In this document: piece after piece, positions 15,421 to 42,689 of the stretch | Layout of the letters: each line of letters starts with the position of its first letter | How positions within the stretch are numbered: position 1 is the stretch's first letter | NCBI GenBank assembly: GCA_965649765.1 | Contig: OZ287760.1 | Location: 25,978,001-26,042,000 of the forward strand | DNA from: Bispira polyomma | Taxonomy: Eukaryota | DNA length: 64,000 nt | Direction: 5' to 3' | Notes under the pieces: model-generated | Seen by the model: only the letters and a program-made list of their open reading frames with translations | Told to the model about the DNA's origin: nothing | The model's database searches: none | Translations under genes and position numbers: made by a program

Positions 15421-15594
15421 AAATAAATGCTTTCAGACCCTATAAGTACCCTTTTTGAGCCCTAAAACTCAGAAATTTTTGAGTAATAAGGTCATTAATG
15501 ATTGAGTACAATGCCAGGAAGAAGTGATGAAGATTTTTTGAGAAGACTAGGGATAATTTTAGTTGTTTTTTTTGAGATTGAAATATAACTTCTA

Positions 15595-16670
15595 ATGTTT
15601 ATATTACAACATGAGAAAGACAAGGCCCAGGCTCAGGCTCAGGAAGAATTGAACCCAACAGCACTATGTGCCCCTTGGGCTCCCCCGGAGAAGATTAGAC
15701 TTCCACGTATGTCACCCATCCACTGGGTCAAGCCTTGGATCAGTCAGAGAGAGGCCCAAGGCTACTACACAAACTTAATGCCGGAGCTAGAGGAAGGGGG
15801 TGCACCCGCATACAGGAATTTTTTCAGGCTACCACCTGATATATTTGAAGAAATCAAAGGGAGGATAACACCCCATGTGAAAAGATCAACAACTTGGTAT
15901 AGAAAGCCCTTGGATGTTGGACTGAAACTGGCTGTAACTTTGAGTCACCTGTCCACTAGGGAGAGCTACAGTTTCCTGTCGTACCTGTTCAGGGTGGGGA
16001 AATCAACTATTACCAAGTTTATACCACAAGCGTGCAAGGCCATCATCAAGGAGTACCAGGTTGAAACTCTAGCCTGCCCAACCACCCCCGCTGAGTGGCT
16101 GAAACCGAAGGAAGTTTTCACAACCAGATGGAATGTCCCTCATGCTGTGGGATCTATTGACGGGAAGCACGTGGCCATCAAGAAGCCTCCCAAGGCTGGG
16201 AGTGAATTTTACAACTACAAAGGCTTCCACTCCATTGTCCTGTTTGCCCTGGTTGATGCAGACTACAGATTTATTTGGGTGGACATTGGCTGCAGTGGTT
16301 CCTGTTCAGACACCCAAATTTTCAACCACTCAGAGCTCAAGCAGAAGATAGACGATGGATCCATTGGGCTGCCCATACCTGCACCACTGTTTGAGGGGAT
16401 TACTTTTCTGCTGGGGGATGACGCCTCTGCCCTGAAAACGTGGATGATGAAACCCTACTCAAGGAGGGCACCTATGAACAGAGAATTTGTAACTACAGGA
16501 TATCCAGGGGAAGGCGGGTGGTGGAGAACGGTTTTTTTGATTTTGACCAGTCGTTTCCACCTATTACTAACGACGATGCAACAACACCCCCTAGTGGCCT
16601 CAAATCTGACATTGACATGTGTCATATTACATAATATACTGAGGAGCCGGTGTGGAAATCCAGCACTAGA
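15595..16670 (+). pseudogene. PIF/Harbinger DDE transposase (HARBI1-like), nearly complete, frameshifted near 16470 and 16535
   Basis: WVKPWI, YRNFFRL, KLAVTL, GSIDGKHVAIKKP, YNYKGFHSIVLFALVDADYRFIWVDIG, FLLGDDASAL, WMMKPYS; NYRISRGRRVVENGF lies in another frame; CVILHNIL returns to the first frame. Confidence 0.95.
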
Positions 16671-17363
16671 GCACCCTAAAAAGTTGTGTGACCCCTTATT
16701 AGGAAGGTCACAATCTCAGGATTTTTTATTTTGTCTACAAAAAAAATTTTCATTTCACCACTGCAAAAATCTATCTTTAACAAAAGCTTCTCAATTGCTT
16801 TTCTACCAAATCATTTCTGGATTATTTGTTTCCAAAATTATTTCTCAAAAGACAACGCATGTGAGCATAGGGTGAATGTATCTCAATTTAGTTCTCACTG
16901 GGATATTTAGCACAGACTTTGTATTGTTTTTTCTTTTTTAAACAATTTTTTACCGTTATTGTCTGCCATTATTTAACAGAAAATTTACTATGGGGATGGG
17001 GAGTTGATATCTCAATTTAGTACTTGGTACTTGGGCAATTTTGGGAGGTTTTCTTTTCTATTTTTCCTATTCTCAGTCAAAATTTACCAAACAGGGACAT
17101 CTTTTACTTTACAAGTTGGACATTCACAAACAATTATTAGGAGGGGGGGGGGTGATAAGTAAGTTTTGTCTGTATGAGTGTTATTTGTTTTGTGTGGCTA
17201 AAATAATCTGTTCGCGCTAATGATTGGGGCTTTTTGTTTGGACAATAATAAATTTTTTTGTCTGTATGTGTGTATTTTTTTTTAATTTTTGTAATCTGTT
17301 TGTTTGGAATAATATTTAGGACTTTTCATTTTTTTTTATTATATTTTATTTTGTTAAAGATAA

Positions 17364-17469: not shown

Positions 17470-18930
17470 CGACACTTGGGGGGACATCTAAACAATTTGA
17501 CCGTTAGTTGCAATAGTCAAGGCTAGAAAGAGGCTTACATATAAACCTTCTCTAGTGTTACTTGCACTGAAAGCTTTCCAAAACCAGGTTCAGAATCAAA
17601 GGCTTCTTATAGCCACAGACAATTCACCCGCTGTATCTTATCTCAACAAGCAGAGAGGCACACAATCCCTCGAGATGTGTCTCTTGGTTTGGCGGATGCT
17701 TGCCTGCTGCAATCCCAGCCAGATCCGGGTTTGGGCCTATTATGTACAGGGATCATGGAACGTGATAGCCATCAGTCTCTCTCACAGGAAAAAGACAGAC
17801 AGACTGAGTGATCTTTACATCCAGAGATGTTCAAGCTCCTATGTCAGAGTATAGATTATACAAACCTCAGATACAAACCTCAGATCGACCTATTTGCGAC
17901 CTATCAAAACCACAAGCTTCCTCTGTATGTGTCACCAATCCCAGATGTCCATGCGCTAGAAATAGATGCATTGAACATCTCTTGTTATGCTTATTGTTCA
18001 GTAACCCTCTTGCTCAAGCTAGTTAAAAAAAGTTTGACTTACCAGTGTTAAATGATGGTCTTAGCCCCAGGATGGCTGGGAATGACCTGGTTCTGGGATC
18101 TGGTAGACCTATCGCCCAGACCACCATTTCTCATACCTCAGTGGTCTCATCTTCTAAAGCAACTGTCCGGCCTCTAATACCACCAAAATATGCAATATCT
18201 GAAACTTCATGTCTGGATACTAAAGATTGGCAAACAGACTCCAGTGTTCAAGATCAGTGGAAGAACGAATTAAGGCACCTCAGAGACCATCCTTTAGACG
18301 AGTGCATGAATCAAGTTGGGTCTTATTTGAACAATGGGCCACAGAGAATACGGTGGTCGGCTCCTCAGCTGCTATAGTCCACATGGCAGATTTTTTCTTG
18401 CTGATTTTGTTTCAAAATCGAAATTTCAAACCTGCAACTATGGCTGGCTATCGCACAGCTATTGCAGATCACTTGGGCTCCAAAGGATAGTCAAAAATAG
18501 ATTTCTAGTCAGCTTTTATAGGGACAAACCTGTGAAGGGTAGGGACATACCTACTTGGGATCTGTCATTGGTACTGTTAGCTTTGACCAAGCCTTCTTTT
18601 AAACATATGAAAGAGGCTTCTTTGAAAATGGTTACCTTCAAACCCCTATTTCTTATGGCCCTGGTCTCAGGGAAGAGAAGAGGTGAAATTCATGCTTGGA
18701 CCTTTTTGTCACTCAAAGATAATCCACATTGGTCTGCGGTTACTGTATCTTTATCTCCAGTATTTTTGGCCAATTACCAGTTGGCTTCTCAAGGTCTAGA
18801 CAGTTAAGCGTGTGGTCATTTCAGCTTTAAAGCCATATTTGAATGACAGCTTAAATGAGGACATCACCTTATGCCCTGTGAGGTCTCTGAGATTTTATCT
18901 CTACTGTAGTCAGGATCTCAGAAAAGGCAA
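17470..18930 (+). mobile_element. DIRS1-like tyrosine-recombinase retrotransposon fragment (RNase H, methyltransferase-like domain, YR), degenerate
   Basis: RNase H: LLIATDNSPAVSYLNKQRGT...NVIAISLS. MT-like: PQIDLFATYQNHKLPLYVSPIPD. YR: TMAGYRTAI, PTWDLSLVL, FLMALVSGKRRGEIHA, LCPVRSL. Confidence 0.9.
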
Positions 18931-18944
18931 GATGTGAAGATGCT

Positions 18945-19065
18945 AATGATTTATGTGTGTTTTCTTTTCTTTATGGGCCTCCTAGTCGTTAGTTAAGATG
19001 CACAGGCAATGATTTATGTGTGTTTCTTTTCTTTACAGACCTCGACGTTAGTTCAGATGTACAGC
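18945..19065. repeat. Two-copy ~63-bp tandem duplication
   Basis: AATGATTTATGTGTGTTT...CTTTA...CGTTAGTT.AGATG occurs twice. Confidence 0.8.
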
Positions 19066-19669
19066 ATGGGGTGTGTGTGGCACAAATCATATTTCACTGA
19101 AGAGGGAAGTTTAATAACTTCTTTGAGGTTATTTTATTACAGAGTCATGGAATATTTTACACTAAACTAAAGAATAAATCTTGTATAACATACTGGAATA
19201 AACTTTTGAAGAATTATTAGCTGCATTTTTTGTAAAAGGGGAATAACAAAAAAGGTATTGAAAATACTGGACAATACTATAGTGAACGCATCTGACCTTA
19301 TAAGGAGTTTGGGCTTTTCAGGTAAAATGTAATTCTACTATTGCTGACAGTAGAGCGACAAGGTGTTTGTATTAATTATAGACTAAGTTGTGTCCTGATA
19401 TATGTGAATGCACTGTCAAGTAACAAATCGGAAATCAAATTAAGGATGTTTAATATAATCAAACAAGACAAATGTTTATTTCATGGTATATGTTCTTTGT
19501 TTATTAAAGGAAAAAAGGTGTCTTTAATCAAATTTGTTGATAAAGCAAAAATAATGTGTGTCAGTGAAGTGTCCTTGTTAATCATTGAGGACATAGAAAA
19601 CTGATTATTTTGTCAGTGGGCATGTATATACTTTTGTCTTTTCATTGAACCAAACAGTGCTAGTGATCA

Positions 19670-20679
19670 GTCTAAGAAGAGAAATCTGAGTGAACTGTCA
19701 GAAAGCCGTGTCAGTAGCCCAGTGTTGATACCTATAAAATTATAAAAAATGAATCCTGAAGAAACAAGTAACCAGGTGGAAGAAAGTGACTAGGTACTAC
19801 AAGACTCAGGAAAGACTTTAGGTGAAAAAATTGATGAGATACTTGTTATTTTGAAAAGACACTCGATTCAAACCAATCTGGATATTAACAGTTGTCATGA
19901 TGAGAACTGCTACTTGCATTTGCGTGTTAATGAATCAGACGGTATCTTTTGTCGTCTCCCTCCAAGGTCACACATTTATATAGCTCATAGCATGGGTCAG
20001 TAAAGCAATAAACCAAGAACCATTATGGCCAGATTTCTAACTCAACGTGGCCGTGATATGGTCATAAGGAAAGCAATCTTTTAAAACTACACCTTTTGCT
20101 ATGAGTGAACAGTTACCTGGTAATGTACGTGAATGAAAAAAAGCACAGATTCTAATTCTCTTATATCTAAGACGGGAGGCTCGAGATTCTAAAGCAAACA
20201 TTAAGTTGATGAGAGACAGGCTAGTCATAAACAACAAGATAAAGTCAGAAATTTTTGAGAAGAATCCCTTGGATCCCACCATCCCTACAGGGGAGTCCAC
20301 AAATTATGATGTTATCCACTATTCAAACCCAGTTGCCATCAAAGGGAGTACATTCCAGGGATATTACTATCCCATACACTGCATGGAAAAAGCGGTTCGA
20401 GCTTTGAGAGCATTACATCAAAACAAGTCGTTGTGTAAAAGCCACCACATCATCTATGCCTTTAATTACTGCGATACTGATGGTCAACAAGTGCCAGGAT
20501 ACTCAGATGATAGTGAATGGGAAGCAAGCAGTTTCTTAAAGGTAATGCTTGACGTTAGCAAATGTTCTGATGGAATATTGATAGTGACCTGCATACACTA
20601 CGGACCAAATCTTGGTAAGCAAAGATTTCAATTGCTAAAAAGAGTTGTCCAAGAAGTTTTACTAGCAAGACCACTTTAG
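19670..20679 (+). pseudogene. LINE ORF1p-like protein (RRM/CTD-like) fused to a C-terminal IMPACT/YigZ (UPF0029) domain; disrupted
   Basis: Upstream frames read IAHSMG*SNKPRTIMARFL...RDMVIRKA / FAMSEQLPGNVRE*KKAQ...KLMRDRLVINN (ORF1p-like pattern). This runs in frame into KGSTFQG...SHHIIYAF...GYSDDSEWEAS...ILIVTCIHYGPNLGKQRF (UPF0029 pattern). Confidence 0.8.
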
Positions 20680-20689
20680 GGGCTGCTTT

Positions 20690-23600
20690 ATTTTGTGAAC
20701 TTGTTTAAGCATTTTTACATTGTTTTAGTTGCACCAAGAGTACTAAAACGCCAGCTAGTGTTCGATCAAAGAACAGGACTCCCATCAAGAAGAGAGGTGC
20801 AGTATTAGCCCGTCCAAACCCGGTAGTTCATAAGGTACCATTATCCAAAACAAATCCTAGTAACAATCTGGAGATTGCCATGTTGGCCATTCTCCAGCAT
20901 TTGGAGACAGCTAATCTAGAGATCCACCGACGGCCTGACCAGGTAGAAGCCAGAGGTAATTCTACACCACTCGCATCACTGATTATCCCGCTAAACGAGT
21001 CCATTGTGGATCTGCATCGTCAGAACATACACACCCAAGCGGGTGCTGTTTCCACCAACCCGACGGCTCAGCCAACTTTACAGCTAGCTACCGGGAATGG
21101 TAGCCGGGCAAGAGTACCAGCTAGATGAATTCGTCCCACGTGTGCACGTACTGCAGAACCTGCCAGATGTGAATGTAGCTGTCAACCTGTGACTGGCAGC
21201 ATATGATGTGCGATATCAGGTAGATACAACGTCACACAACCCCAATTTAGGTGACCAACGAAGGCTAGATTGGAGGCACAGCACGTAAGAAAATTTAATG
21301 AGTTGTCTTTATCTCAGTAGGCTGCCGGCCAGTTTACCAACGTGCAGACAACTGACGTCACCATGATGAAAGGTATGTTGAAACAGATGATTTACACGTT
21401 GCGAGATTCACACGCTCTTCTTTGGCCAGCGGTTTACGCAGCTTGGGGACACAGCATGCAAGAGGTTGAAGAAGGTTGGCTGGACTGGTCTAACCAGACG
21501 CAATGGGTGTTGAATCGCCTCAGTATGTCGCAGATGGCACTTGTGAATGGCCACTCCACGCATACTCCTCAGTATTTTAACAATGGTTCCTGCAGTCACG
21601 ACGGTGACCACAGTCTGTATAAGCACCACTGTTCATATTGTTATAAAGTGTTGAATAAAGAAAATAACCACCCCAAATTTAAATGTTTGAAAGCCAACAG
21701 TGCTAACGCCAAACCTGGCAGCTAGGATGGAGGTCGTTGATCACATGCAACTGACAGTCAACTTAATGGTAACAGAGACATGAGAGACGTAGATATAGAA
21801 ATATGTCATGTAAATTGAGATAACAATGTTTCTCATATAGTTGAAGTACACATTTGTGAAGAGTCTAAAATGTCAGAGTGTAAGTATGACTGAACGTCCG
21901 CGAGCACGAAGGATGTCCTGGTTGAGTCAGAAGATTTGCCCTTAGTGTTTGGGTCTTTTCGAGAAATCACTCACACTAAGGACATTTCTGATTCCCATAA
22001 GACCATAGGATTTATAAAAATTTCAAATAAACCATTTCATTTCACTGGACCAGACAGGGATTCGGTCACAGTTGATTCAATTCCCACTATATGTTACTTA
22101 GCAGATATTATAAGGGAAACAGGGGTGCCACAGGCAAGCTAGAATCCCTAGCACTTGCGGTTTGAAGATAGAAGCATAGGAAAATATTAGAAGCGATCAC
22201 CCAGACCAACTTCTTTGTCAATATCTCAAATTTGGTTTTCCTTTATCTTTACATAACTCACACATGTTAAAACACACTGCTATAACAAATCATCACTCGG
22301 CCCTTCAGTATACAGAGGCATTTGAGAAATACTTACAAAAAGAGAAAGACAAAAGTCCAATGTTAGGGCCTGTTTCCAACATACCAAATGCACATTATCA
22401 TTGTTCACCTCTCCTTACCAGGCCTAAGGATGTGAATGACAGGTGAGTTATATTGAATTTATCACACCGACAGGGTGCATATGTTAACCACCATGAAGAA
22501 TTTGACAACATAAATTTTGCTTTAAAATTTCCCAACATAGATGATGTAACTAAAGCCATAAATAATATTGATGATCCATTACTATTGAAGGTTGACATCG
22601 CCAGGGCCTTTAGAAACTTGCGCGTCAACCCAGTGGATGCACTCAAATTTGGTATAAAATGGAAAGATAAATATTGGACGGTGCGGTGGCGTTTGGGTGG
22701 GTGCATGGCAGTGTGGCCTTCCAGCGCTGCTCTGACGCCATAGCTGACCATATGAAAACACTAGGCTACACACTATTTTGTTACATAGATGATTACCTAT
22801 CTACTTGCTCAGAGACAAAGCTGATGAAGGTTTTCAAAAATTGTGTGATCTCTTTAATAAACTAGATCTCCCCATGAATCCAAGTAAAATATCTTCTCCT
22901 TCCAAAGAGGTTTCATATCTAGGCATAGACAACAACATTGAAACAAACACAATAAGTAGACACTCTTCTCCTTCTGCCCCCTTTTTCACTTGTCCCACTT
23001 TACCACACCATCCAATAGTGAATTCACACGTCCGATCTGCACTTGGACAAATTCTCCAGCACCTTGGAATTAACCCTTCATTCCATGGTTTCCATACTTT
23101 CCGCAGATCGGGGGCTACAGCAGCTTTAACAAAAATGTCTTAGGTCTGCCGTGTGGACATATTTGCAATTTACATCCAAAGCTGCTGCTATAGTCCCCTC
23201 CACTGTAGTACCATCCACTCTATAGTTGGGTTTGGGCTCATTTTAAAATATCATTTTACAATATTTTAATATACTTTAACCTGTATATAACCACTAACGT
23301 ATATACAGAAAATAAAACGCAAATTAGAAGCTTTTTATTTCTCCTTCCTTTTTCACTTTCACTTCACATAGGGAACTGTTACTAGCAAGACCCCTACAGC
23401 GGGCTGCTGTCATTTCCAAAAACCTGCTTTATCAATCTATTCTTGTTATTACACTCTGTCTACACCCACTAAGGTGTCAAGCAATCACAACTTGACAAAC
23501 CTCTATCCAGTAGCTTGTGAAGCCCCCCCCCCCATATGTAGCTCTTCCATTTTAAACCCAGCAGACAAGGGTAAACACGTGTACAGCAAATCCAGCCACC

Positions 23601-24544
23601 CTCCCCTTCCACCTTGTGTTAGGCATATTTCAAGCTTTCGGTTGATTTGCGGAATAAACCTACATCAAGTTTGACAAAATTTATATTCTTGCACCCTATG
23701 CACTTGCAGGGGGATTTGGGTCTGGAGACGTGTGGTGGGGGGTACTTCCTTCTTACCCCCCCCCCCCCATAAGCATCACGCCTAGGGAGCCACTGCTAGG
23801 CGAATTGGTGTCCAAGGCCCCTTTCCTTTTAATTTCTCTTGACAGGTGTACATGGGCATATTCTTTCATAATATGTTATTATTTTACAACATTCAGCAGG
23901 TCAGACGGTGGGCATGTAAGAGACACTGACAGATACCACTCTGTGCTCTGTACTATTTCACTATACAACATGATATTAAGGTCATGTGGTGAATAATTAT
24001 AATATGGGCTAGTCCTGTGACAATGTTATGACTATAAACTTGTTTTAACGGTAACATCATTCATTTGTTTATTTTACGTGTACCCTGGGCCGCGGTGGCC
24101 TAGTGGTTAGCAAGCATTGCGCTTCACAATCACTGGTCTCTCACCTCTGGGCGGCATGAGTTCAAATCCCGTCAATGCCTATGTGGGGAAAGGTGGCAGT
24201 TCCTTACTGTGGGTTGCTGGTTTCAATGCAGAACCTTGATCAACTGTATGCAATGTTTCCTCCAGCGTTTTCAACTATCGTCCCAATATAACCTAAAAAA
24301 CAGGTACTAGATTGGACGTTAAATATCCAAATTCAAAAAAAAAAATGTACATGTACCCTATTATTGGTTATACGTTTTGTCAGCTTCCCATGGGCTTATT
24401 CCTGGATGCTGCGTGGGCTCATTTTAAAATATCATTTTACAATATTTCAATATACTTTAACCTGTATAAACCCACTAACATGTACAGAAAATAAAACTTT
24501 TTATTTATACTTTCTTTTTCACTTACACTTCACATAGGAAACTG
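20690..24544 (+). mobile_element. Ngaro-like tyrosine-recombinase retrotransposon, internally deleted (gag, RT, YR tail, split direct repeat)
   Basis: gag with a Cys/His finger (YFNNGSCSHDGDHSLYKHHCSYC, to 21725). RT: HCSPLLTRPK, LLKVDIARAFRNLRVNP, FGWVHGSVAFQ, YIDDYL. RT is joined directly to the YR tail FHTFRRSGAT at ~22957. Direct repeat 23233-23378 / 24414-24544. Confidence 0.88.
24087..24347 (+). mobile_element. tRNA-derived SINE with ~12-bp TSD
   Basis: A box TGGCCTAGTGG, B box GAGTTCAAATCC, A-rich tail. TSD TACGTGTACCCT (24075-24086) / TACATGTACCCT (24348-24359). Same family as 34165. Confidence 0.92.
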
Positions 24545-25689
24545 CCTAATAATGTCTCTGTATAAACGTCATTCTCAAGATGCTCTAGACCTTGGAAACC
24601 ATTATATAATAAGTTTAAACATTCCAAGAACAATAATAACTAATTTCTTTGATAAAAGGGCATTAAATACATTCATTACATATTTAAAAGCCTACCTTAC
24701 AGACTGATTTTTTTTCAAAATACCATGACATTTACATTTGTAAATATAATCAAGAGCGAAAACCAGTTTTGCTGTATTTTTTTATTATAATCAGGTTTGC
24801 TGTGATCATTTTGATTTGATGATTTAGCATACAACTTTTTTTTATAGTGTATACACAGCTACCAAAAAAATCCATGTATGTCAGATGATGTTGATTTTTG
24901 ATTCGGTATGCTAGCATAGACTATTATTTTCCCCAGTTGTACATGTACAGCAGATGATACATATACTTAAGGATCAATATTGCAGTTTGTATGTTTTAAA
25001 TTTTATTAACTTCTGAACCTTGTTAAATTTTGAGTAGGTTTGTTAACATACGACTGTTTTTGTTTGTTTTGTTTTTTCAAGCTGTACATGTAAATAGTTT
25101 GCAGGTTATATGTAATTGAGAATAAATATTGAATCATGAACAGCTAGTAAAACAGCACTAATTTGTGATACCTTACAAACTGAATTTTGTGTTAAAAATT
25201 TTTAGTATCACATATGGTGGATATCCCATGACATAAACTATTAAACATGTGAAATTTACACAAGTTAACTCTCCCAATATTGTTCACAGTGTCATTTATT
25301 TATTTTTATTTTGATAAAACATTGATTCTGTAAATAATGCCTTAATTAAGTTATGTTAGTTTTGGTATTTTTCTTCTTTAGTATCCTTAGGTTAAGAAAT
25401 GTGTGTTTGTTTTTTTTAAAAAATGCATTAAACAGGTGCTACCTTCTTGCAATTGGTATTAAAATGAAGTGTATAAAAAAAAAATTCCACAGATATGTAG
25501 TCTTTTTTTGTGAGTTGTAGCAAGTCAATAAATGTTAAATATAAGTTACTAAGGTGGTCTTTGAAGTCATCAATCATTGAAAAAAAAAAACGGTTGAAAT
25601 AATTAGTCGATTACTCCAGTCAAAACAAAATAATTTATTGCTGCTTATTCTAGAGAATGCCATGTGTTATTACTGCAACTTTTTCCGCA

Positions 25690-28618
25690 AATAATATTCA
25701 GGTTTTATCTGCAAACTGTCAATGATTGGGAAACAAACAGAAAAGGATGGACATTTTGGCATACTCCAAAGATAGAGAAGCTAACATAATTTGTCTCCCA
25801 GATACCCATTCGATCGAAAGTGACTTAAGTAATATTAAACAATTGTGGAATTACAATTGTTATATTCACGGGTCTAAAACCAATGCACATGGTGTAGCAA
25901 TTCTTTTAAAAAGTAATTCAGAATATACAGTATTGTCAAGTGAACAAGACACAGAAGGAAATTGCCTCTGTCTTACCATAAAACTTAGCTCTATGACAAT
26001 TGCCCTTATTACAATATATGCCCCAAATAAGGACACTCCACTTTTCTTTACAAAACTGCAGGATGTTGTGCAGAGTAGTAATTTTGATTACTGCATAATA
26101 TGTGGTGACTATAACTTAGTGATAAATCCTGCACTTGATACAGACGGATAGAAACATATAATAAATTCAAAAGCTAGGCTAACAGTGCTCAATATGATGG
26201 CTGATTTTGATCTTCTAGATATACTAGATTACTTTTTTGGTTTCCAAGAATATGTTAGATATGATTAATAAATGCGAAATTAAACCTGGTTGTAGGTCAG
26301 ACCAATCCATTATAGAATTAGAAATTGTGTTGAACCATTTTAAGGTGGGAAAGGGAATTTGGAAATTTAATAATAGTCTACTTAAAAACATTGATTATTT
26401 AAATTTAATAAACAAAGTAATAAAAGATATTTATAATAAAAATACCTGTATATGATTTTAAATTTTTAGAAAATAATTACAATGATATTAATTTCACGAT
26501 AGACAATGATCACTTTCTTTAAGGATAAGAGGGGAAACAATTAGGTTTGCAAGGCCTGTAAAAAAATAAATGTCTCTCAAAGAAAGAGATCTGATGAAAG
26601 ATTTATTATTTTGAAAGAAATATAGACTCCCAAAATTTCAATTTACAATTGCTATCAGATAAAAAAGCCGAATTGGAATATATTAGAGAAAATAAAATGA
26701 AAGAGGCACAGGTTAGAGCTAGAATACAGTGACTAAATGAGGGGAAAAAACCTCTAAGCCATTTTGTAATTTAGAATCGAGAAATTATGTCAAAAAAAAC
26801 AATAAAAAAATTACAATCGGATGATGGTCAAACAATTTATGAGCAGAAGGAATTGCTACACCACGTCAAAACTTATTATTCAAATTTATTTATCAACCGA
26901 GATGTGTACCTTAATGTAGAAAGCTTTGATTCTTTGAAAGAGGTTCAATTAGACAAAGTTGTTGATGAGAATTTGGGTGGTTCTATATCTGTAGATGGAT
27001 TGGAAACAGTTTAAAAAAAGATGAAACATAACAAAACACCAGGAATAGATGGTGTTACTGGGAAATTTTTATAAGTTTTCTGGGGAATGCTAAAATTTTT
27101 ATAGCTAGAGCAATCAACTGTGGTTTTGAAAAAGGTTCAATCTCAATAACTCTGCGCTAATGTATTATAGTCTGATTACCAAAGGGAAACAAGAACAGAA
27201 GTTTTATGAAGAACTGGCGACCTATTTCACTACTTTCTGTAATTTACAAGCTAGCTTCGGGTGTAATAGCTATAAGATTTATAATAGCTGTAACAGTTTT
27301 AGATCTTATTATACCAAAATCACAATCTGGCTTTGTACCAGGGGGACACATGATAGTGATTATGATATAATGCATTCAGCAAAAGTAAAAAATGTCCCTG
27401 GACTTTTAATGCTTATAGATTTTGAAAAGGCATTTGACTTCACTTCTTGAATATTTCTGTATAAAAATCTTCGAATGTTTGGTTTTAGCAAGGAATTTAT
27501 TAAGTGGGTAAAACTCTTTAACTCCAACATCAAAGCACATGTACTTCAATGTGGTACCTTAGCTGAATAAATTTCCATTGAAAGGGGTTCCAGACACGGG
27601 GACCCACTTTTGCCATATTTATTTTTAATAGGAACTGAAGTACTGTCTTCATTACTAAAACTAAATCCAAACATAAAATGTTTTAGGTTGAGAAATGAAG
27701 AAATCAAATTAACACAGTTTGCAGATGACACAACTCTTATACTTGATGGATCACAGCGCTCTCTAAAGACAGCACTTAATATACTAGAAATATTTGGAAA
27801 TTTTTCTGGCTTAAAAATGAACATAGAAAAACAAATGTGATCTGGATTGGTCGAAAACATTTCTTTTAGGAAAAATAAAAAATAAAACAACCTAGAATGG
27901 GGCAACATGGAATTTTCTATGTTAGGATTAAATTTTTCAACCAATTTGGGTGATATTCCAATCAGAAACTACTCTGATGCATTAGAAAAAAAATAAGAAG
28001 GACATGGCAAATTGGAGAAATAGATATCTCACACCTTTTGGAAGAATACTACCTATTAAAACCATATTTTTGTCAAAACTGATACACCTCTTCATTACCT
28101 TGCCTGCACCATTTGTATTTTGAAACAGATGAATAAAATGATGTTTGAATTTTTATGGAATCATAAACCTGATAAGGTCAAACAAAAAACCATATGTGGG
28201 GATTATTTAAAGGGGGTTTCAAAATAATTAATATATGGCATTTTGAAAGGCATTAAAAATAACTTGGATACAAAAGACAATCTATCAACTAGGAGTAGTA
28301 TATAACAAGGTATTACACGAATTAAATAGTAAGGTAAATAATTTATCTGGACTGGGTGGAGAATTACTGAAAAACTAATTTTGGACTACTATTTTTGGAT
28401 ACTGGAATAATTTCTGTTAAAAAACTCAACCCTAATCAAATAACGAAATTTCAGATTTATGTTTATGGTAGTCAAGTCAAGTAGTCAAGTATCAAAATGT
28501 ATTCTATGTTACCAGACTTGATACAAAAAGGGAATAAGCCTAGTCGGTGATATAAAATGTATATATAGAAGGAACTGTAATTTGTCATGCGAAATTGAAT
28601 AAAAAATATAACAGTTCC
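25690..28618 (+). mobile_element. L1/Tx1-type LINE ORF2 (APE endonuclease plus RT), degenerate, 5' part
   Basis: EN: IICLPDTH, GVAILL, TIYAPN, IICGDYN, SDQS, WKFNNSLL. RT: KTPGIDG, NWRPISLL, LIDFEKAFD, GDPLLPYLF, QFADDTTL, FSGLKMNIEK. Confidence 0.93.
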
Positions 28619-29169
28619 TCGGTGTGTGGGCAAATGATAGATATTTAACCAACAACACATAGTAAGAAAAGATTGTAGTTAAATACTTTTATTATATATA
28701 TATATGATTTCTACTACTAACATATTTTTTATATACAGTTTCTTTGTAGAATACGTAATACTGTTGTGGGCATAAGGTCCCCTTAACTCAAGTGAGTTTA
28801 AGGCCTTGAGCTTATACAAAGCTTACATTTAGGTGACCTTAGGTACAATGAGTTTAAGAGTATAAGTTTGCCAAAGTTGACTTTGAGTCCAAACTTAGAG
28901 GATTTGAGTTTAAGGTTAAGAGTTTAAGTTTGGTAGAAATTTTAATTTAAGGGCAAACTCAAGAGATTAAACTTTAAATTTATGCTAGTCTAAAGTTTGA
29001 CTTAGGGTTTTAAGTCGAACTTTAGATACTTGAGTACAATATGTACTAATATAATGAAGGGGGGGACCTTATGCCCAAAAAAGGTATAATATTTAGTGTT
29101 ATTTTGACATATCTTAAGCCTAAATATTTAAGTTAGACCACCAAGCCCCAAACTAGTAGGTGTTTTGTA

Positions 29170-30128
29170 GGACATCTTTAAAGGAATCTGCAACTTGAGT
29201 AGCAGCATCAGCAGAGTCTGAGATGTAACGCCACACGCAATCCGACGTCCAGGTGCCATGTTTTTGAATATCCTGAATCTTGACGTTATTGTTAAACGCA
29301 AAGGTGGCACCTGAACGTCAGAAGGCGTGAAAGATCAAGCCAGAGTATTGAGTACCAAGTAAGGATAGTACATTTTTGAGGTACCTTCGCACACGTGTGT
29401 CCGTTAGTGGAACCCACGAGCCTTGGAGTTTAAATTGAAATTTTTTCCTTTAGGTGAGATGGCTAACACAGCTTTCAAGGCCTGAACAGGACAAAGAATT
29501 GAATTTTGTATACTAGGGATGGTTAGCAACCGAACTGCATCATTTCTCTACAGCGTCTTGAACCATTTAACCATGATGACTCCATACCCTGACTTAAACA
29601 AAACATCAGCTCTAGCTAATTGCTTAAGAGGAGAGTATGACCCCATTGAATGAGGACACAGATTGGATAAACGCAAAAATGTAAAAAAACTTGTCAAATA
29701 AACAGCCTTGAAAATTTGGCCCATGTAAGTACTATCACATTTACTAATGAGAGCCCTAAGCAAATGCACATTAAAAATTCATTTCAATTTCGTTTGTAAA
29801 GATCTATGCATGGCCAAGGCTTTAGTGAAATAAGAAATTCTCTGATCAGAAAATACTTGAACATCTATATGAAACATAACACATTTTGCCTTCACAGCCG
29901 AGATGTGATTTACTACCTGAGAGGCCGAAACACCATTGAAATTTAGAAACTCTAAATATGCTAAAATTTGCAACACAGTCACCTTGTGGGGAGGCCACGA
30001 CACAAAGGCTCCAAAAGCTAGGAACTGTCGGAACATTCTGTCATATGCTTTATTAGTGGCAGGAGTAAGAGCTGAGTTCAGTCTATCACAAGCCCATCTC
30101 ATCAGAGCCAGACCCACAGGGTGAGGGC
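29170..30128 (-). pseudogene. Tyrosine recombinase of the Ngaro-like element, disrupted
   Basis: N-terminal SAM-like helices, FFTFLRLSNL (catalytic Arg), VKWFKTL, LCPVQAL, FHAF*RSGAT, HGTWTSDCVWRY. Confidence 0.92.
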
Positions 30129-30152
30129 CTGGAAAAGAAAAACTAGAACCTG

Positions 30153-32462
30153 CTATATAAGAGTATTCACATGAAGTAAATTTTCAGGGGCAGGAAGCCA
30201 TTGAATTGGTCCAGCCAGTTGATTTAATAATAGGTGGTTACTTTCTGTCTCTGCCCATCTGGAAAGTAAGTCAGCCACTTTATTTTCTCTACCTAGAATA
30301 TGGACTACAACAATTTCAATGTCAAACTTACTGGCTAACATGTATATGTTTCTGGTATAAGTGGCCAATATGGGGTCTCTAGTATGGCCTGTCTGTAAAA
30401 CATTGACTACTGCCTGATTGTCATATCTTACTAAAATTCTCTGACCCTTCCATTTTTGGACCCATAACTTCATTGCTACCAAAATGTTCAACATTTCGAG
30501 AGAAGCTATATTATACTCTGTCATACTTTTAGGAACTTTAATTTGGTATACTTGATTTCCATAAATCCCCCCATGCCTGTGAGGCAGGCATCCAGTTGTA
30601 TCTCGCCTGATATGGGTTTATGTAAGAAAAAGGAAACACCATTGAACTGCTCTGCAAAAGTTCTAAACCAATTTAAGTCACGTCTGAATGCATCACTTAT
30701 TACAATTTTATTTTTACTGTGATTAATAGTGATTATCTCGTAGCAGTTCCAACATTCTATTCAAGAAAACCCGAGCATATTTAACACATTTAGAGATATA
30801 TAGCAAAAGGCCCATTAAGGACTGTAGTTCTCTTTTGGTACAATAATTTTTTGAAGCCCAATCCCTGCACTTGCTCTGAATTTCTGCCATTTTTTTCAGA
30901 TGGGATAGAAGTTGTGCATTTGACTGTGTCAATTATTATGCCTAAGCAGACTACCTCAGTGCTAGGTGGAACCAATTTTTTCTGACTAACTGTAAGACCC
31001 AGTTCAGCAAATAATTCTAGCAGTCTTATTAACGTTTTCTGAATTTTGCTAGGAAGTGATACACATAAAAAATCGTCGATATAATTGTGGATGTTATGAT
31101 TTTCTGAGTGCATTATGAAACGCACTGCATCCGAAATTCGTTGAAAAATAGTGCTGCCATTTAAATAACCGAACGGCAGCGATTTATCGACATAGTAAGA
31201 TTTACACTTCAACCCTAAGAGGTCAATGTCACCAGGGTCGATGAGGACGTGGTGAAACGCCCTACTCACGTCTATTTTAAATATCTGACAACCCTTACCA
31301 AATTTAGACACTTCAGTAGTAAGATGATCAATGGAAGGGTAAGACAGTAAAAAATCGACACCCAGATACGAAGTCGACAAAGCACCTGCATTTACTGAAG
31401 CCCCTTGAGGCCAACTCAAATCCACAATCACACGTCTGTTAATCGAGTTGGGTTTATGTCTGGTCATTAAAGGGGAACAATGCAAATTCTGAATTGGTGG
31501 AGTGTCGAAAGGACCAAGCATTGCCCCAAAGCCACATTCTTCCTTCATATAGGAGTCTACATGTTGAGGAAATTCCTCTGCTGACTTATGGTTAGTTTCA
31601 TTCGACATCAAGAGGGAATCCGTATTTTATAAGGAGAGGCAGTTGCCAATCCCAGTAGGTTTGTAAATACTTTCCCCCACGTTTCAGCTTTTAATTGAGA
31701 ATGGACAGGAATCTGGAGGCCAGTATAATTATGCCTGCCATCAAGACGTAGTTTCTTATGCATTTGTAATATGGATAGTTCGTGCCCTCCCCCACCATGG
31801 TCGGCAATCTCACTGGCCAAAGCCGAGAGAGGAATAAATCCATAAGCATGACTACTCTGGTCCTGCCATTTTTTGTGTGTTTGATTCGAGGCCGCCTTCT
31901 GCAGCAACTCCCTTTTATTTTTCTTGTGCTTTAAAGCACACAAATACTTATCAGAGGTTTCAACATTTTCATTAACACGTTCTGCGCAAGTACTTGTCTC
32001 TTGGCGCTTTGCAAAGCCCCCACTGTTACCCGGGGTGTTACTAGAGCGAACGACCCTCACAATGACTGCATTGTCCTCCACAGGTATCTGTGCCAACGCC
32101 GAAAACCGGTTGTTAAGCTGAAGGCCACAGTTAGCTTCATTGACACGGCTCTTTTCGCCCCCCCTCTGAATCGATTTTCTAACACCTTTTGTCTCCACGC
32201 CCTGTTGCTTTGTGCATGGGGGTCGCTTCACAATAGGTGTCACTTTCTTAGCCGCTTGAATGGAGGTGCCAATTGCAGGTGTTAACTTTTCAAACCTTTG
32301 AATAGATGTGGCAGCAGAGGTGTCAACATTATTCTTGAGTTCATCTCTGCCAACCTTTTGTGGTTGGCAAAATCTGCCCTTTGTCACCTTTCCAGAGCTA
32401 AACCTGTCAACCCCACCCTTATGGCTCAGACTTTCTGTATGTCCAGTATTATATACCAACAT
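30153..32462 (-). pseudogene. pol (RT plus RNase H) of the Ngaro-like element, several frameshifts
   Basis: HCSPLMTRHKP, RRVIVDLSWP, FKIDVSRAF, LPFGYLNGSTIFQ, NYIDDFL, LQSLMGLL, DAC, EMLNILVA, YDNQAVV, NKVADLLSR. Confidence 0.93.
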
Positions 32463-32655
32463 TGGTTTTCTGGTACTAGCAGTACTTTTTAAAGCATCAC
32501 TATAACTAACTTTTGACCTTCATATATTTACACATTTTCTGATACACATTTTTTTCAAACAAATGAAAATCTTTGAAGCCTGTGCCATAGACAGTTCTAT
32601 TTACAACCTTAACATTTTTTTAACTTTTTATCCACTGCATCCAAGCAGTGGCCCC

Positions 32656-33618
32656 TTAGTTTTTTGCCTCTTTTTTGCTACACATACTGGTCTTATGACT
32701 ACCCCCACAAATTTCACAACTATGCCTATACATTTGCCCCCCTGTATTATGTGAGCTAGAGAACTTGCAAGTTCCTTCTTGGAAGAACCTGCAAGGTGTC
32801 GACTTTTTCTGACTAGTTTTACTACTGCCAGTGCTAACAGCACGGCCATTCGCCCCATGAATAGATCTTGACACACCTACATGACATTGGGCGTGTGCCC
32901 TGCGAATCCGGTCGACCTTCTCGACATCCAACCACCCGAGCTTGTCCATTTCCATATTGGTTAGGACTACCGCGTGGCAGGCCTTCGCCGCCTCCCACGA
33001 AAAGTCTTGGGCGTCCTCCATGAGGCCACTTATGTAATCTAGCATAGCGTTCTTAATTTCAGTCGACTTCTCCTCATGAGCGATCCGGGTGAAGCCACAA
33101 ACCCATTATACAAGGGTTAGGTCGTCGTAACTAGGGCGAGTCTTCGAACTGCCGGTCAGCACATAATTCTGGGGCCATTCGACTGCCTTTTTTACAATAA
33201 CCTCGTTTTCCCCAGAGACTTAATTTTACCTGAGGGATTTTCATTAAGAGACCAGAGTTCCTTTAATCTCTGTTCAACTTGCAACTGAATCTGAGCGTTC
33301 TGACTCAAAAATTCGACACTCGGAACGACAGTATCTGGGCCAGTAGGTGGGCTTTTACCTTCGTCAGCAGAGACTAGCTCTTTAGAAACACTAGGAGTAA
33401 TGCTAGAAGGAACGGTACTCGCCTTACTACTGGTGAGGTTGGCTGCTAACGCTGCCTCTGTCTGCTGGACTCGCTGATCCATCCTCTCGACTACCTGGCT
33501 AAGTGATTGCAACTGCTGTAGTATAGCGCTAGATACAGCCTCGTTCGGATGAACCAGCGAGTCCTCATGGGAGCCAGCGTCAACCTCCACTCCCTCACCC
33601 GAGATATCAGGCATATTA
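32656..33618 (-). pseudogene. gag-like ORF of the Ngaro-like element (one frameshift near 33200)
   Basis: Coiled-coil segment, then WPQNYVL, YDDLTL, MLDYISGLMEDAQDFSWEAAKACHAVVL and a finger PCRFFQEGTC...HSCEIC..H. Confidence 0.85.
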
Positions 33619-33907
33619 ACCGAACAGTTTCTTCCAACCGGTCTCTCATGTTTTTGCAAACAGCTTTTTACCTGGCATGACTTGAGTGTATATTGAATTA
33701 AAATACTAAAACCATATAACAGTATAAAACATAAAACACTCTCTTTGTCACCCAAACAGTATTTGAATTTTCCTAGTGCTCTGCTGACAAACGGTAAAAG
33801 GCGGGAGAATTTGAAAGGGGGATGGCTTATGTACTCGCCCATCCATCCCTTAGTAGTGAACAGCCAGGTACCCCACAACTGAGGCCGCCAACGCTGGGGG
33901 CGTTAGC

Positions 33908-34930
33908 TTTCACATTTCTACAAATATTTTAGACCATTACAGGTTAAAACTCTCGGTTTAGAAGTTCCTGAAGACATATGAAAAATGCAGGACATTTTCT
34001 TCCTTGAGATCTTGTCTACCATTCCATATAAAAATTTTGTCTAAATCCAGAAAAGGGAGTAATGGTTTCTATAAAATATACAGTGGAGATGACTTTGTGT
34101 GACCATTTTTTAACTCAATATGGGTAGTAAAACTAAATTTCTCAGTACATATCAATGTTTTGAAGGGGGCCGCGGTAGCCTAGTGGTTAGCAAGCATTGA
34201 GCTTCACAATCACTGGTCTCTCACCTCTGGGCGGCGTGAGTTCGACTCCTGTCAATGCCTATGTAGGAAAGGTGGTAATTCCTTACTGTTGGCCGCTGGT
34301 TTCAATGCAGAACCTTGATCAACTGTATGCAGTCCTTCAGCGTTTCCAACTACCCGTCCTAATATAACCTAAACAGGTACTAGAGTGGACATTAAATATC
34401 CAAATTCAAATCAATGTTTTGAAAAATATTTTTTAAGGCCAGTTTCAAGTCTATTTTAGATAACACATTAATATGGTTTCAATATAAAATACTTTTTAAC
34501 ATTTTGGATGCCAATCATTATTTGCATGAGATAAAAGTAGTTGATTCTAACCTTTGCAATTTTTCTGTTAGCAACATCCTGATTCTATTTACCACCTTTT
34601 TACCTGGTGCACTTACATTGACAAATTGTGGCAAAATATATTAGATTGTATCTGGAATAAGTTTGCTCTTAAAATAGAGCTATGCGATGCTAAAAATATT
34701 ATGGTATAAAAAAATGGACATAAATTTCTGGCCATTAAACTTTTTGCTACTAGTATCAAGGTATTACGTATTGTGGTGCTCAAAGAGGAAATTTCAATTG
34801 AACATATATTTCCTTCAGAAAAATATAAAGATATATTTTTAGAACAAAAAATTTTGTCGAAAGTAAATTAAACTGAACAAACATTTAACAAGAAATGGGA
34901 AGTATGGGAAAACTTCATAGTGTAAAACGT
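33908..34930 (+). mobile_element. 3' part of the L1/Tx1 LINE ORF2 (C-terminal Cys/His knuckle region)
   Basis: WFQYKIL and KVVDSNLCNF..QHPDSIYHLFTWC motifs at ~34475-34610; ends ...FNKKWEVW. Confidence 0.8.
34165..34409 (+). mobile_element. tRNA-derived SINE with perfect 14-bp TSD, inserted in the LINE
   Basis: A box TAGCCTAGTGG, B box GAGTTCGACTCC. TSD ATCAATGTTTTGAA at 34151-34164 and 34410-34423. Confidence 0.95.
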
Positions 34931-35289
34931 TTTGTTTTTTTTTGTTAAACTTCTGCATAAGATGTCCATTGAGAAAGTGAGCATTATAAAAAAAATATTA
35001 TTAAAAACATGTTTTCTTGTGATTTGGTAACCAGCATTGAGGTATAAATTGATTGCATTTATTAAAATGTGCCTACTGTATATTTGTAATATTTATTTTT
35101 ATACAACAAAAAGAAATAAAAAATTTTTAAAAAAAGGAAAGATGTACAGCATTGGCTAAAGGAATTTGTCCAGCAGTTCACTTTAGGGGCCTCTGTCTCA
35201 GTTACCCTCCTGTTCAAATAGACTTTTTTAAAACTATTCTTGTGCTGGAAATGCACTTTTCCCTACTTAGGTATGCAGCCAATCAATGA

Positions 35290-36354
35290 TTAGACCCCCT
35301 TGAATTAGCGTGGGTATCCGGGTATCCCCCCATCCACTCTGCATTTTTGGAAATGCAAAATTTTTGGGTATCCAAGGGTAAACAACTATTTTACTGAAAT
35401 TTTATATACTGTGATTAATTTAAGCGTTTATTTTTGATACAATAAGCTTTTATATACACATAGTTTATATACACCCTAGTAGACTATTTGAAGGATAAAA
35501 CAAGTAAAACCACCAGTAGTGTGCCCCTGAAGAAGAGGGGAGCTACGGAAACATGCAAAACAGTGATGAAAGTGACAGATCTGGTCGTACAAAACTTGAA
35601 TGCCCCGTTATCTGAAGTTGAATCTGCGAAGAGATCAGGTGATATGTTCGAGATCATGAATATTCTCCGAAAGTTACATTCCGCCAAGGCGTCCATTAAC
35701 AAATGGTTAGACATGGTCGAAACAAGGGGCTCTTGCAACTCCACACCGCTTAACTTACCCCATCATCGGTACGATACCATTCTGGACCTGGGTAGTCACG
35801 CTCTGCCATCCACGGTACAACAACCACTGCCAGTATATCAACCTCAACAGATTTCTGGCATCTAGCCTGTCGTCCAGCCAGCTGCAGTACAACTAACGCA
35901 GCAAGTATACCACCCACAACAGATGCCTAGTATCCAGCCGGTCGCAACTCACTTAGAGTATCAACAAGATGCCATGATTCCTCATCCTGATGTATTGAAA
36001 ACGCTGCCTTGTCCCAAGGTAAGCCATCCTCTTTCTGCCAGAAATCTGGCAGGTTCAATCAAACTGACATTTGTAGTGCAGACCCCCAGTCATGCTGGGC
36101 CAATGAAGATTGGCTGGGTGGCACTACTCGAAAGCGATCCCAGTATGATGAGCTGTCGCTTGCTCAATGGTCTGGTGGTGACCACCATGGGGCATATGCT
36201 TAACCAGATGATATACTCTCTTAAAGATGCAGCTTTCCTCCCCTGGCCGGTTAAAAAGGGACAAGTCAACCCAGTGGGCGTTGAATGGACTCAGCACATC
36301 CCAGTTAGTTCTCGCCAACTCACAGGTGTATGTTTTTACATTGGTAGTTCATAA
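35290..36354 (+). mobile_element. 5' fragment (leader plus gag) of an Ngaro-like element related to the one at 20690
   Basis: LDMVETRGSCNSTPL vs PDQVEARGNSTPL; YDELSLAQWS; MLNQMIYSLKDAAFLPWP vs MLKQMIYTLRDSHALLWP. Confidence 0.8.
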
Positions 36355-36526: not shown

Positions 36527-37051
36527 TCAACACTCAAATCCCTTAAATCCTTAATACCGCTAAAAGTCTAACAACAACATCCCTTAAATGGTTAATACTG
36601 CTAAAAGTCTAACACACCAACCTTGCTTAAAGCCTTAATACCGCTAAAAGTCTGACACACCCACATCCCTTAAATCTTTAATATTGCTAAAAGTATAAAA
36701 CACCTACATCCCGTAAACCCTAATAGTGCAGTAATTCCACACACCCACATCCCTTAAATCCTTAATAGCGCAGAAAGTATACACACCAACATCCCTTAAA
36801 TTATTAATAGCGTAAAAAATTTAATACACCCACATCCCTTAAATCCTTAATAATGCTAAAAGTCTAAAACACCAACTTTCCTTAAATCCTTAATACTGCT
36901 AAAAGTCTAACACACCCACATCCCCTAAATCCTTAATACTGCTGAAAGTATAAAACACCAACATCCCTTAAATCCTTGATGCCGCAGAAAGTCCAACATC
37001 CCTTAAATCCTTAATACAGCTAAAAGTCTAACACACCAACATTGCTTAAAC
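36527..37051. repeat. Minisatellite, ~43-bp unit, ~12 copies
   Basis: Consensus ACACACCAACATCCCTTAAATCCTTAATACTGCTAAAAGTCTA. Confidence 0.93.
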
Positions 37052-38936
37052 CCTGATCTAGGTATCCCTACCCCCATGTTTAGCATCAACCGGTTATCTC
37101 AAACATACAAGATACCTACAAGCATTTATGTGTTTGTGTCAACCAGTAAGCGAAATAGTTTGACATAACAGATCGTTACTTTTTTCAGATGGTTTCTTTA
37201 CTTGGTCATTAAGCATCCCCCACCCCCCACACACACCATCAGCCTTGTGGTGTAATCATAATATAGTTTTAGTGGCTGAAGTATGCGATCTATAATCGTC
37301 ACTTTTAGAATTGAATTAGAAAAGTTTTACCGGTAATCGAATTAAGAACATCACACTTGAACCGTTAAAAGTGTAGTTTTTAAGAGAAAATGTTGGGTGT
37401 ACAAGAAGGAACTACGGTAAGTTGTAAGCTTTTTCCTGAAACCAGTAAGTGTGTCTGTTTAAAATATTGACACGTAAAAGATGTAGCATGTTAGACTATG
37501 CCACCTCTCGTAACGGTCATGCAAATATATGTTCAACCACACTACATTCTTACATTTCTCAGCTTTTGCATCAAATATCTTACAGGGCAAAGTACATATC
37601 CTAATTTAAATCCTGTGGTGCCAGGACATTAGTGTTAACTTTGCTCTTAATACTAAGACTAACAGTAAGCAGTTTATAATATTTTAGACTTAAATGTCAA
37701 GTTTAAAACTAAGTTAAGACTAAGACCTTTTGTCAATACGGCGCTGAAGCTGGAGCTGAAGGCATTGTATATCAACAACATGCTACTTCCATACAGACTT
37801 GTTTGATCTTTTAGATTTACAGAATCCAGTCTGACATACTACTAAACTGCCCACAGTCGATGTATACCTAAAATGTTTGCTTCACACATATACAATATGC
37901 CTACCACACAGATCTGATGAACCCTAAACATAATAGTACAGTAAGTAACAAAAAAAACAAGTTTGACTGAATTCAACATTTTAGTTTTACATATTACTTC
38001 AGTAAAAGCATTAGACATAAAATAATCTCAAAATTAAAATAAATTAGTTTAACGATACTATTTCCTGTATTTATTAGATTTATGTTTTGATTTCAGCACA
38101 TAATCAGTTAAAACACCAATTGAATTGTTTGACAAAAAGGCAAGATAAAAAACAGATTTATTAGTCTCTCTCATTCCTATGAGGCTCACTTATTTTCAAG
38201 ATCCGAGATGATAATAAATGACATGGTTTTAGTCTGTCCTCATATAATACTCTCTGTACCTGCTACGACTATATTCTTCATAAAAAAAGTGTTATTAACA
38301 GTGTGATGTAACATCAAAGAACTGACACTTCAACAGTTAACAGCTGAGATGTGGCTAATACCACCAAATACCACCAATTAATTCATTATGGACATGAGTA
38401 TCAATATAATATCACAAAAGATCTCATAGTTTTGTGTTTTTAAAATCAATATATTTCTTGTATTTTCAGTGTAACTGGCATTACTTTTAACCCCTTTATT
38501 TCTTCTTTTTTGACAATTGTAAAGTTAAAATGCAATATAATCTATGTATTAACTTAAGATGAAACATAGTATACAAAAAAAGTTAATTTTATTGAGTGTT
38601 AATTTCTAAAATAATAAACTCCCCTTTAAAGTACAGATAATTATGATTTGATAAAAAACAATGACTAATTTATGCCTTATTAGAGTTCTGGGTAAAATGA
38701 AACCACAAAATAATAAGGCACATCACAAATGACAAAAAATAAGTTTCATAGTGTCCTCATATACATTTTAAGTGTAAACAGCTCATAGTTAATATATATA
38801 ACATAAAATATGCACGTCCTACAAGTTCTCACTTTGTATAAGTTACAACTTGTACCGGTTTCAAACTGCTTGTACAAATAGAAACTTGTATAAAATATGC
38901 CCTTGTACCCAACATAAAGGTAGCTGTTTAAAGGAA

Positions 38937-42672: not shown

Positions 42673-42689
42673 CTGTGGTAAACAATGAA

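Follow-up and report, generated by a model that had tools for sequence, protein, structure and literature searches.

What is an IMPACT domain doing in the middle of a cluster of retrotransposon fragments? The question is raised by a 64,000-nucleotide stretch of the Bispira polyomma genome (here called the window; G000:C13:25978001-26042000, from a 1.04-Gb genome), in which an open frame at 20137-20679 carries the IMPACT/UPF0029 domain (PF01205, E 1.3e-10, six-frame reading). An earlier note on this DNA proposed that the frame is ORF1 of one long interspersed nuclear element (LINE) that was split by two tyrosine recombinase (YR) retrotransposons and a short interspersed element (SINE). Positions 19068-35139 are a single insertion of a LINE of the L1 group, now defunct, that three later insertions, the two YR retrotransposons and the SINE, have split. 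We are highly confident of this anatomy and of a selected accessory role for the IMPACT domain in the ORF1 protein (ORF1p), the exact activity of the domain lying outside that statement.

Comparison of the flanks determined that a perfect 13-bp target-site duplication (TSD), AGATGTACAGCAT, surrounds the LINE on the + strand, with its left copy at 19055-19067 and its right copy at 35140-35152. A common word of 13 letters or more was found in 10 of 4,974 random pairs of equal size. The 5' untranslated region (UTR; 19068-19643, +) is nearly full length and is 85-86% identical to the copies L031, L032, L033, L035 and L037 from ~19080, and the first ~10 nt are unlike the 5' end of the family. The 3' UTR with its AATAAA and A-rich tail occupies 34926-35139 (+), and the copies stop at the same place in A-runs. 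The element is therefore longer than the 19670-34930 of the earlier note, whose idea of a LINE family with an ORF1-IMPACT fusion holds but whose reconstructed size of ~6 kb becomes ~6.6 kb once the three insertions are subtracted.

The earlier note had suggested looking for uninterrupted copies, and such copies, taken from the genome, were aligned with the window at the junctions. Twelve close copies (L031-L039, L041, L049 and L050; by segment their identity is 77-93%, for the most part 85-89%) begin near window position 19080 and finish in A-runs near 35135. ORF1 continues directly into the spacer in all twelve with no insertion at the first junction, and seven (L031, L032, L035, L036, L039, L041 and L049; 78-93% by segment) are colinear across all three insertion sites. 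L035 is full length (6,949 bp) and has a 13-bp duplication of its own; words of 9-12 letters are common to both ends of L031, L032, L034 and L036 and one of 7 letters to those of L039, and the same comparison gave no shared end word at L041 or L050. In the reverse transcriptase (RT) region the window copy, which is older and dead, is 88.7% identical to L035, while five others share 95-98% with L035.

In the window, ORF1 (19644-20658, +) is broken: its start codon is lost, and it carries stops, frameshifts and a 180-bp deletion at 19975. Alignment with uninterrupted copies places its last codons and native stop at 24545-24565 (+; stop 24563-24565). The IMPACT domain lies at about 20300-20658 (+). 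Intact copies encode an ORF1 of 408 amino acids (aa) in which PF01205 scores 57.6 bits against a cut-off of 27, and the architecture is a coiled coil, an RNA recognition motif (RRM) and then a C-terminal domain (CTD) followed by the C-terminal IMPACT/UPF0029 domain of ~120 aa. An AlphaFold model of ORF1 built from 39 sequences (mean pLDDT 80.2) has a disordered segment at 1-54, a helix at 59-124, the RRM at 125-218 and the CTD to ~265. Foldseek ranked the human L1 ORF1p trimer (2yko, E 4.7e-7) first for this model and then Yih1, TTHA1053 and YigZ. VIA-align gave Z scores of 10.9, 10.4 and 9.9 for the model against 2yko, 2w7a and 2ldy; residues 287-408 scored 15.9 with 2cve and 15.3 with 1vi7, at an rmsd of ~2. 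By its predicted coiled coil, single RRM and CTD the ORF1 is assigned to type II (L1-like). For the ORF1 core, the ESM Atlas returned a Transposase_22 feature lead at 0.79 and nothing stronger. A resemblance of the IMPACT domain to the YicC endoribonuclease fold was set aside, as its Z of 6.6 lies within the background.

The RWD domain that characterizes cellular IMPACT/Yih1 was found in ORF1 neither by Pfam nor by fold. On the IMPACT profile yeast Yih1 scores 89.6 bits and the bacterial proteins score 24 and 19.7 bits; the LINE domain is 24-43% identical to the RWD-IMPACT protein P0205. Because the domain is nearer to Yih1 than to bacterial YigZ, we infer that it was derived from a eukaryotic IMPACT gene minus RWD. 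Among the 150 PF01205 matches listed, 20 of which were fetched at 8 kb and 30 at 3.3 kb, none was recognized as a cellular IMPACT gene. One of the proteins encountered, P0148, has 569 aa and several tandem IMPACT domains with no ORF1 core.

Downstream of ORF1 the parts follow in canonical LINE order, all on the + strand, as the earlier note had read them and as six-frame reading, Pfam and the copies agree. The spacer (24566-25690), described in the note as AT-rich and ~1.1 kb long, is 1,124 bp with 27.7% GC. ORF2 is broken into a first part with the APE endonuclease and the RT (25690-28613, assigned by Pfam and copies), a second part (33912-34164, by comparison with copies) and a third part (34410-34925, stop 34923-34925) that holds the expected C-terminal knuckle, C-X2-C-X8-H-X4-C, at about 34555-34610. 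The knuckle is frameshifted in the window and is matched by the tail of L032. The window piece of PF03372 has an E of 5e-4, which is under the cut-off, and intact copies give 6e-15 for PF03372 and 1e-37 for PF00078; zf-RVT matches the ORF2 end of L035 with an E of 1.3e-8. ORF2 matches human L1 ORF2p with an E of 9e-57 versus 1e-27 for R2, and its RT is split from three CR1-like RTs with support of 100/100. With an APE endonuclease and an RT that is nearest to L1, the knuckle, and copies that have A-tails, TSDs and 5' truncations, the element is classed by sequence as an L1-group LINE, few reference clades being present in the RT comparison. Tx1 is an L1-group clade that has been named for bivalves (PMC10294476). 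In L031-L170 the distance from the ORF1 stop to the endonuclease ranges from about 0.5 to 4.7 kb and is longest in L094, L097, L101 and L158, and several copies of the window family have a ~395 bp tandem duplication in the spacer.

Linkage of the two ORFs was surveyed across the genome. A search with the IMPACT frame gave 150 matches among the 150 scored of 502 candidates; removing the window, merging one split match and omitting one nested match left 147 places, of which 140 were fetched at 10 kb. The ORF1 core lies upstream of IMPACT in 130 of these 140 loci. Downstream and on the same strand an endonuclease was found in 126, an RT in 127, either in 133, both in 120 and neither in 7. A PF01205 search, in which 150 of 427 candidates were scored, gave more distant loci, and each of the 20 taken up is followed on the same strand by an L1-type ORF2. 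In the reverse direction, nine of nine matches to the endonuclease of the same family that lack a nearby IMPACT are 5'-truncated within the spacer or the last ORF1 codons; one match that belongs to L033, past an insertion, and a further match that is partial were left out of this test.

These results bear on the suggestion that the IMPACT frame is cargo or a leader of the first inserted element, which is of the Ngaro type, or that ORF1 and ORF2 come from two elements that are adjacent by chance. The open frame does reach 21 bases into the Ngaro-type element, and a gap of 3.9 kb separates it from the spacer. However, a single TSD encloses the whole span, ORF1 is joined directly to the spacer in the close copies, and similarity to YR elements occurs in just 10 of the 140 IMPACT loci, at scattered positions with no fixed place. 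The suggestion is refuted by the TSD, the uninterrupted copies and the survey of IMPACT loci, and the probability left to it is negligible. The earlier note had also named arrangements that would speak against a split LINE. An alternative ORF1 in front of the same-family ORF2 was seen in none of the nine fetched truncated copies, and a consistent tie of IMPACT to gag-RT-YR was not seen in the 140 loci. IMPACT together with another ORF2 was seen in four of the 133 ORF2-linked loci (L152, L166, L169 and L170), which form a separate, CR1-like family and pose no conflict for this element.

The three insertions that split the LINE have junctions at 20658/24545, 28613/33912 (with a 3-base duplication) and 34164/34410 (with a 14-bp duplication). 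The first, at 20659-24544 (+), is an internally deleted Ngaro-type YR retrotransposon, recognized by its repeats, by its relatives in the genome and by its absence from the 12 close copies. It entered ~seven codons upstream of the ORF1 stop; the junction 20679/24545 of the earlier note is thus displaced, as the insert supplies the final 21 bases of its IMPACT ORF. Ngaro elements are built with split direct repeats in the order A1...B1-A2-B2. The insert shows this arrangement, with an A1 remnant at 20659-20687, gag and RT remnants, a YR C-terminal remnant, B1 at 23233-23378, A2 from 23379 and B2 at 24414-24544. B1 and B2 are 83.6% identical over 146 nt (they differ by 12-16%), the A1 remnant matches A2, and A2 matches the 5' ends of relatives. 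Besides RT sequence, just the last stretch of the recombinase remains (tblastx E 1e-19). The nearest relatives found are ~79-84% identical, below the 85-89% of the LINE to its own family, though closer ones may be missing or unscored.

The second insertion, at 28614-33911 on the - strand with a 3-base duplication ACA, is a YR retrotransposon in which Pfam and translation give gag with zf-CCCH, RT, RNase H and a tyrosine recombinase. Full-length relatives are 90-95% identical with the same ends, and the insert is absent from seven LINE copies. The earlier note had placed it at 28619-33907 and called both YR elements Ngaro-like; its nature as a YR element stands with the borders moved, and the Ngaro label is borne out by split repeats for the first insert and is not established for the second, in whose window copy none were found. 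For the second insert, 8 of 28 scored candidates show another copy of the 160-nt 5' end directly past the 3' end, and the window copy has one. The third insertion is the SINE at 34165-34409 (+), as the note had it, flanked by the 14-bp duplication at 34151-34164 and 34410-34423 and absent from uninterrupted copies. The same SINE lies inside the Ngaro-type insert at ~24087-24337, the two window copies being ~90% alike, and many copies occur elsewhere in the genome at 93-94%. An Rfam search of 19000-35300 gave no match at E<=0.1, and the SINE head is thus unassigned by Rfam.

Whether the domain matters to the LINE can be judged from its conservation. The 39 intact ORF1s, clustered at 75%, form 16 families and 120 pairs, among which the mean between-family identity is 41.5% for IMPACT, 41.2% for the RRM and 40.2% for the CTD; it falls to 32.9% in the coiled coil and to 26.6% at the N-terminus. 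Silent sites between families are saturated (pS ~0.80 in both IMPACT and RRM); pN and pS were used, dN/dS not being computable. Residues S299, F301, H332, Y337, D353, V378, G384 and G388 are invariant in all 24 family representatives, and D352, E355 and R380 are kept in 23 of the 24. These conserved residues are those common to Yih1 and TTHA1053, and on Yih1 and YigZ the invariant features lie grouped on a single face (PMC4503747). The comparison between families demonstrates purifying selection on the IMPACT domain at the sequence level.

Selection between families also bears on the idea that the domain is a neutral passenger, or that the loci are expanded host IMPACT paralogues and not mobile elements. 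The hundreds of candidates in the genome (502 by the IMPACT frame and 427 by PF01205) and a weak selection signal within families would suit it. Against this, the in-frame fusion and the motif persist over 24 families with saturated silent sites. The copies end in A-tails, show duplications and 5' truncations and possess an ORF2, and the RWD domain is absent. We consider this idea very improbable.

How the domain is distributed among LINE lineages was examined with 79 intact RT domains, which form 25 clusters, 22 of L1 type and 3 outside. Twenty of the 22 (two of them nearly identical) have an IMPACT-ORF1 and 2 have an ORF1 with a NADAR domain. The young family of L152, L166, L169 and L170 is 98-99% alike across ~6.6 kb, has A-tails, and pairs an IMPACT-ORF1 with an ORF2 of 1,121-1,139 aa that is distantly like L1 (E 3e-18). 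We take this ORF2 to be CR1-like from its motifs, and GDVQPNPGP near its start is presumably a 2A-like peptide. The IMPACT domain of this family is ~34% identical to that of the window family, and its ORF1 groups with the L1-linked L132/L137 with modest support (86/86, 83/88), inside the L1-linked ORF1s. This nesting suggests that the ORF1 of the CR1-like family was transferred from an L1 family.

NADAR occupies the IMPACT slot in the ORF1 of L181-L183 (PF08719 E 2.6e-43 for L181, at 2745-4070, oriented); together with L189 these represent young L1 families with an intact ORF2 of 1,272 aa. In L189 a NADAR-like frame lies 2.7 kb upstream of ORF2, and the genome has 2,147 NADAR candidates. By its RT the L187/L189 family falls with the IMPACT families L111 and L151 (96/92), and three NADAR ORF1 cores separate from all 24 IMPACT cores (100/99, with long branches flagged and 3 NADAR rows). 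This combination fits an exchange of whole ORF1s between lineages. Outside this genome, where taxonomic range is taken from ESM Atlas labels alone, the search covered the best 150 among 1.84 billion 50%-identity representatives. Of these 150 clusters, 122 have the core followed by IMPACT in the same order, and 109 of the 122 have D[DN]xE. Impact_N also marks three ESM Atlas clusters (57, 242 and 102 members), whose members of known phylum are mostly molluscan.

In L1, the coiled coil lets ORF1p oligomerize, and the RRM and CTD let it coat its own RNA. L1 ORF2p inserts a copy by target-primed reverse transcription, which leaves an A-tail, duplications and 5' truncations. By analogy, the ORF1p of this LINE would form a ribonucleoprotein (RNP) on its own RNA and ORF2p would insert the copy, and the IMPACT domain would be a module of the RNP with an accessory enzymatic or binding role. 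The patch of S, H, DDxE and R residues would act in the cytoplasmic RNP on a substrate that is a nucleic acid or is associated with the ribosome, as has been proposed for NADAR in the same slot of sister families. The domain has a mean charge of -0.9 and the RRM one of +6.6. Because of the conserved polar patch, the near-neutral charge and the presence of NADAR in the same slot, we tentatively read the domain as an accessory enzyme or ligand-binding module that acts on the nucleic acid of the RNP or at the ribosome, and give this somewhat short of an even chance.

Several observations weigh against this reading or against the wider picture of a selected ORF1 domain. The ancient domain (the IMPACT part proper) has no known activity (PMC4503747, PMC6550387, PMC7140605), and its near-neutral charge argues against plain RNA binding. 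Within families dN/dS is mixed, with no clear selection (e.g. L031/L035 IMPACT, dN 0.041 and dS 0.021), which is expected because copies decay after insertion. Seven of the 140 loci have no ORF2 within the fetched 7.5 kb, the 20 distant loci were hand-picked, mostly for long open frames, and Pfam Transposase_22 gave no match to the ORF1 core at E<=1.

A near-neutral domain would also suit transport of the RNP by docking on actin or some other host protein. The ancient domain is needed, though insufficient, for actin binding by Yih1 (PMC6550387), and membrane targeting has been proposed for the esterase in CR1/L2 ORF1p (PMC3905857). The invariant residues are, however, polar (S, H, D, D, E, R), bacterial proteins have them too, and they would fit a catalytic or ligand site better than a docking surface specific to eukaryotes; we think docking unlikely, though it comes next after the enzyme or ligand-binding reading. 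A further proposal makes the domain a decoy that damps the GCN2 translation-stress response and so keeps the RNA of the element translated. Cellular IMPACT/Yih1 does inhibit GCN2 (PMC6550387, PMC7140605), and the LINE domain is nearest to eukaryotic IMPACT. That inhibition acts through the RWD domain competing for GCN1 according to the same papers, and since ORF1 has no RWD, direct inhibition of GCN2 by the LINE protein is decidedly unlikely. A broader version of the accessory-module reading, possible but doubtful, is that the ORF1 C-terminus of molluscan LINEs is an effector slot for IMPACT or NADAR, that whole ORF1s were swapped between L1 lineages and onto the CR1-like element, and that IMPACT is an RNA- or nucleotide-acting enzyme that shields the RNP from host defence or a stress mark. 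If this were true, LINEs would reveal the activity of the ancient domain. The probability that remains after all of these would fall to other roles of the domain.

Other features of the window lie outside the LINE. An open frame of 428 aa at 15589-16875 (+; DDE_Tnp_4 E 2.9e-18) is presumably a PIF/Harbinger-like transposase. Immediately left of the LINE, 18016-18932 is a decayed DIRS-like recombinase stretch that is ~65% like pieces in L033 and has a motif in common with a long frame of L180. A gag-like fragment begins ~140 bp past the right TSD and is followed by a 43-bp tandem array (35290-36354 and 36528-37062). The earlier note had argued from this gag copy, which has no IMPACT upstream, that IMPACT does not belong to the Ngaro element; the gag resembles the first YR element only faintly (tblastx E 5e-5 and no match by blastn), so the argument is weak, and its conclusion stands on the other evidence. 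The stretch at 42500-45500 is A/C-rich, strongly skewed and probably a tandem array.

Nested insertions of this kind are ordinary, and the point of interest is the cargo, a domain that occurs in all kingdoms from bacteria to humans and whose function is stated as unknown (PMC4503747, PMC7140605). About 20 LINE families keep the domain under selection without RWD, and therefore it would be useful on its own. Young families in which both ORF1 and ORF2 are open exist (e.g. L169 and L221), so that a standard retrotransposition reporter could read out the domain directly, and "hypothetical IMPACT-like proteins" of molluscs are likely to be transposon products. Type II ORF1s and the exchange of ORF1 between clades are already known (PMC4120745), as are the esterase ORF1 (PMC3905857) and NADAR in the ORF1 of oyster Tx1 (PMC12477816). 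An IMPACT domain in a LINE was not found described in the literature searched, although it may be noted in Repbase, Dfam or subscription journals, which were outside the search. The words "impact" and "UPF0029" are absent from the available text of PMC4120745; in the available material of PMC5203782 the main text has no "UPF", two of three supplementary files lack UPF0029, NADAR, DUF1768 and impact, and the third may list ORF1 domains. Accessory ORF1 domains as such are thus known already, and the IMPACT-bearing ORF1 is a new ORF1 subtype for LINE classification.

The closest known system is human LINE-1 (ORF1p 2yko, ORF2p 8sxt), with which the window LINE shares two ORFs, the coiled coil-RRM-CTD and APE-RT-knuckle arrangements, the A-tail, the TSD and 5' truncation. 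It differs in the extra C-terminal IMPACT domain of ~120 aa in ORF1, in the spacer of 1.1 kb (to ~4.7 kb in relatives) and in the C-X2-C-X8-H-X4-C knuckle spacing. The molluscan Tx1 LINEs of Crassostrea gigas (PMC12477816) likewise have an accessory conserved domain in ORF1, but theirs is NADAR, which is unrelated to IMPACT/UPF0029. NADAR-ORF1 families stand beside the IMPACT ones in this genome, and the ORF1 cores of the two kinds fall on opposite sides of one well-supported branch (with 3 NADAR rows). The esterase (type IV) and PHD ORF1p of CR1/L2 (PMC3905857, PMC4120745) are also cases of a captured ORF1 domain on more than one LINE clade, as here on the L1 group and a CR1-like element, whereas IMPACT was added to a full RRM-CTD ORF1. 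The IMPACT/Yih1 (6bqi) and YigZ/TTHA1053 (1vi7, 2cve) proteins share with the LINE domain the same fold and the S-x-F, H-x-x-x-x-Y, DDxE and V-x-R-x-x-x-G-x-x-x-G motifs. Unlike Yih1 the LINE domain has no RWD, it lacks the C-terminal domain of YigZ, and it is fused instead to the RNA-binding protein of a retrotransposon.

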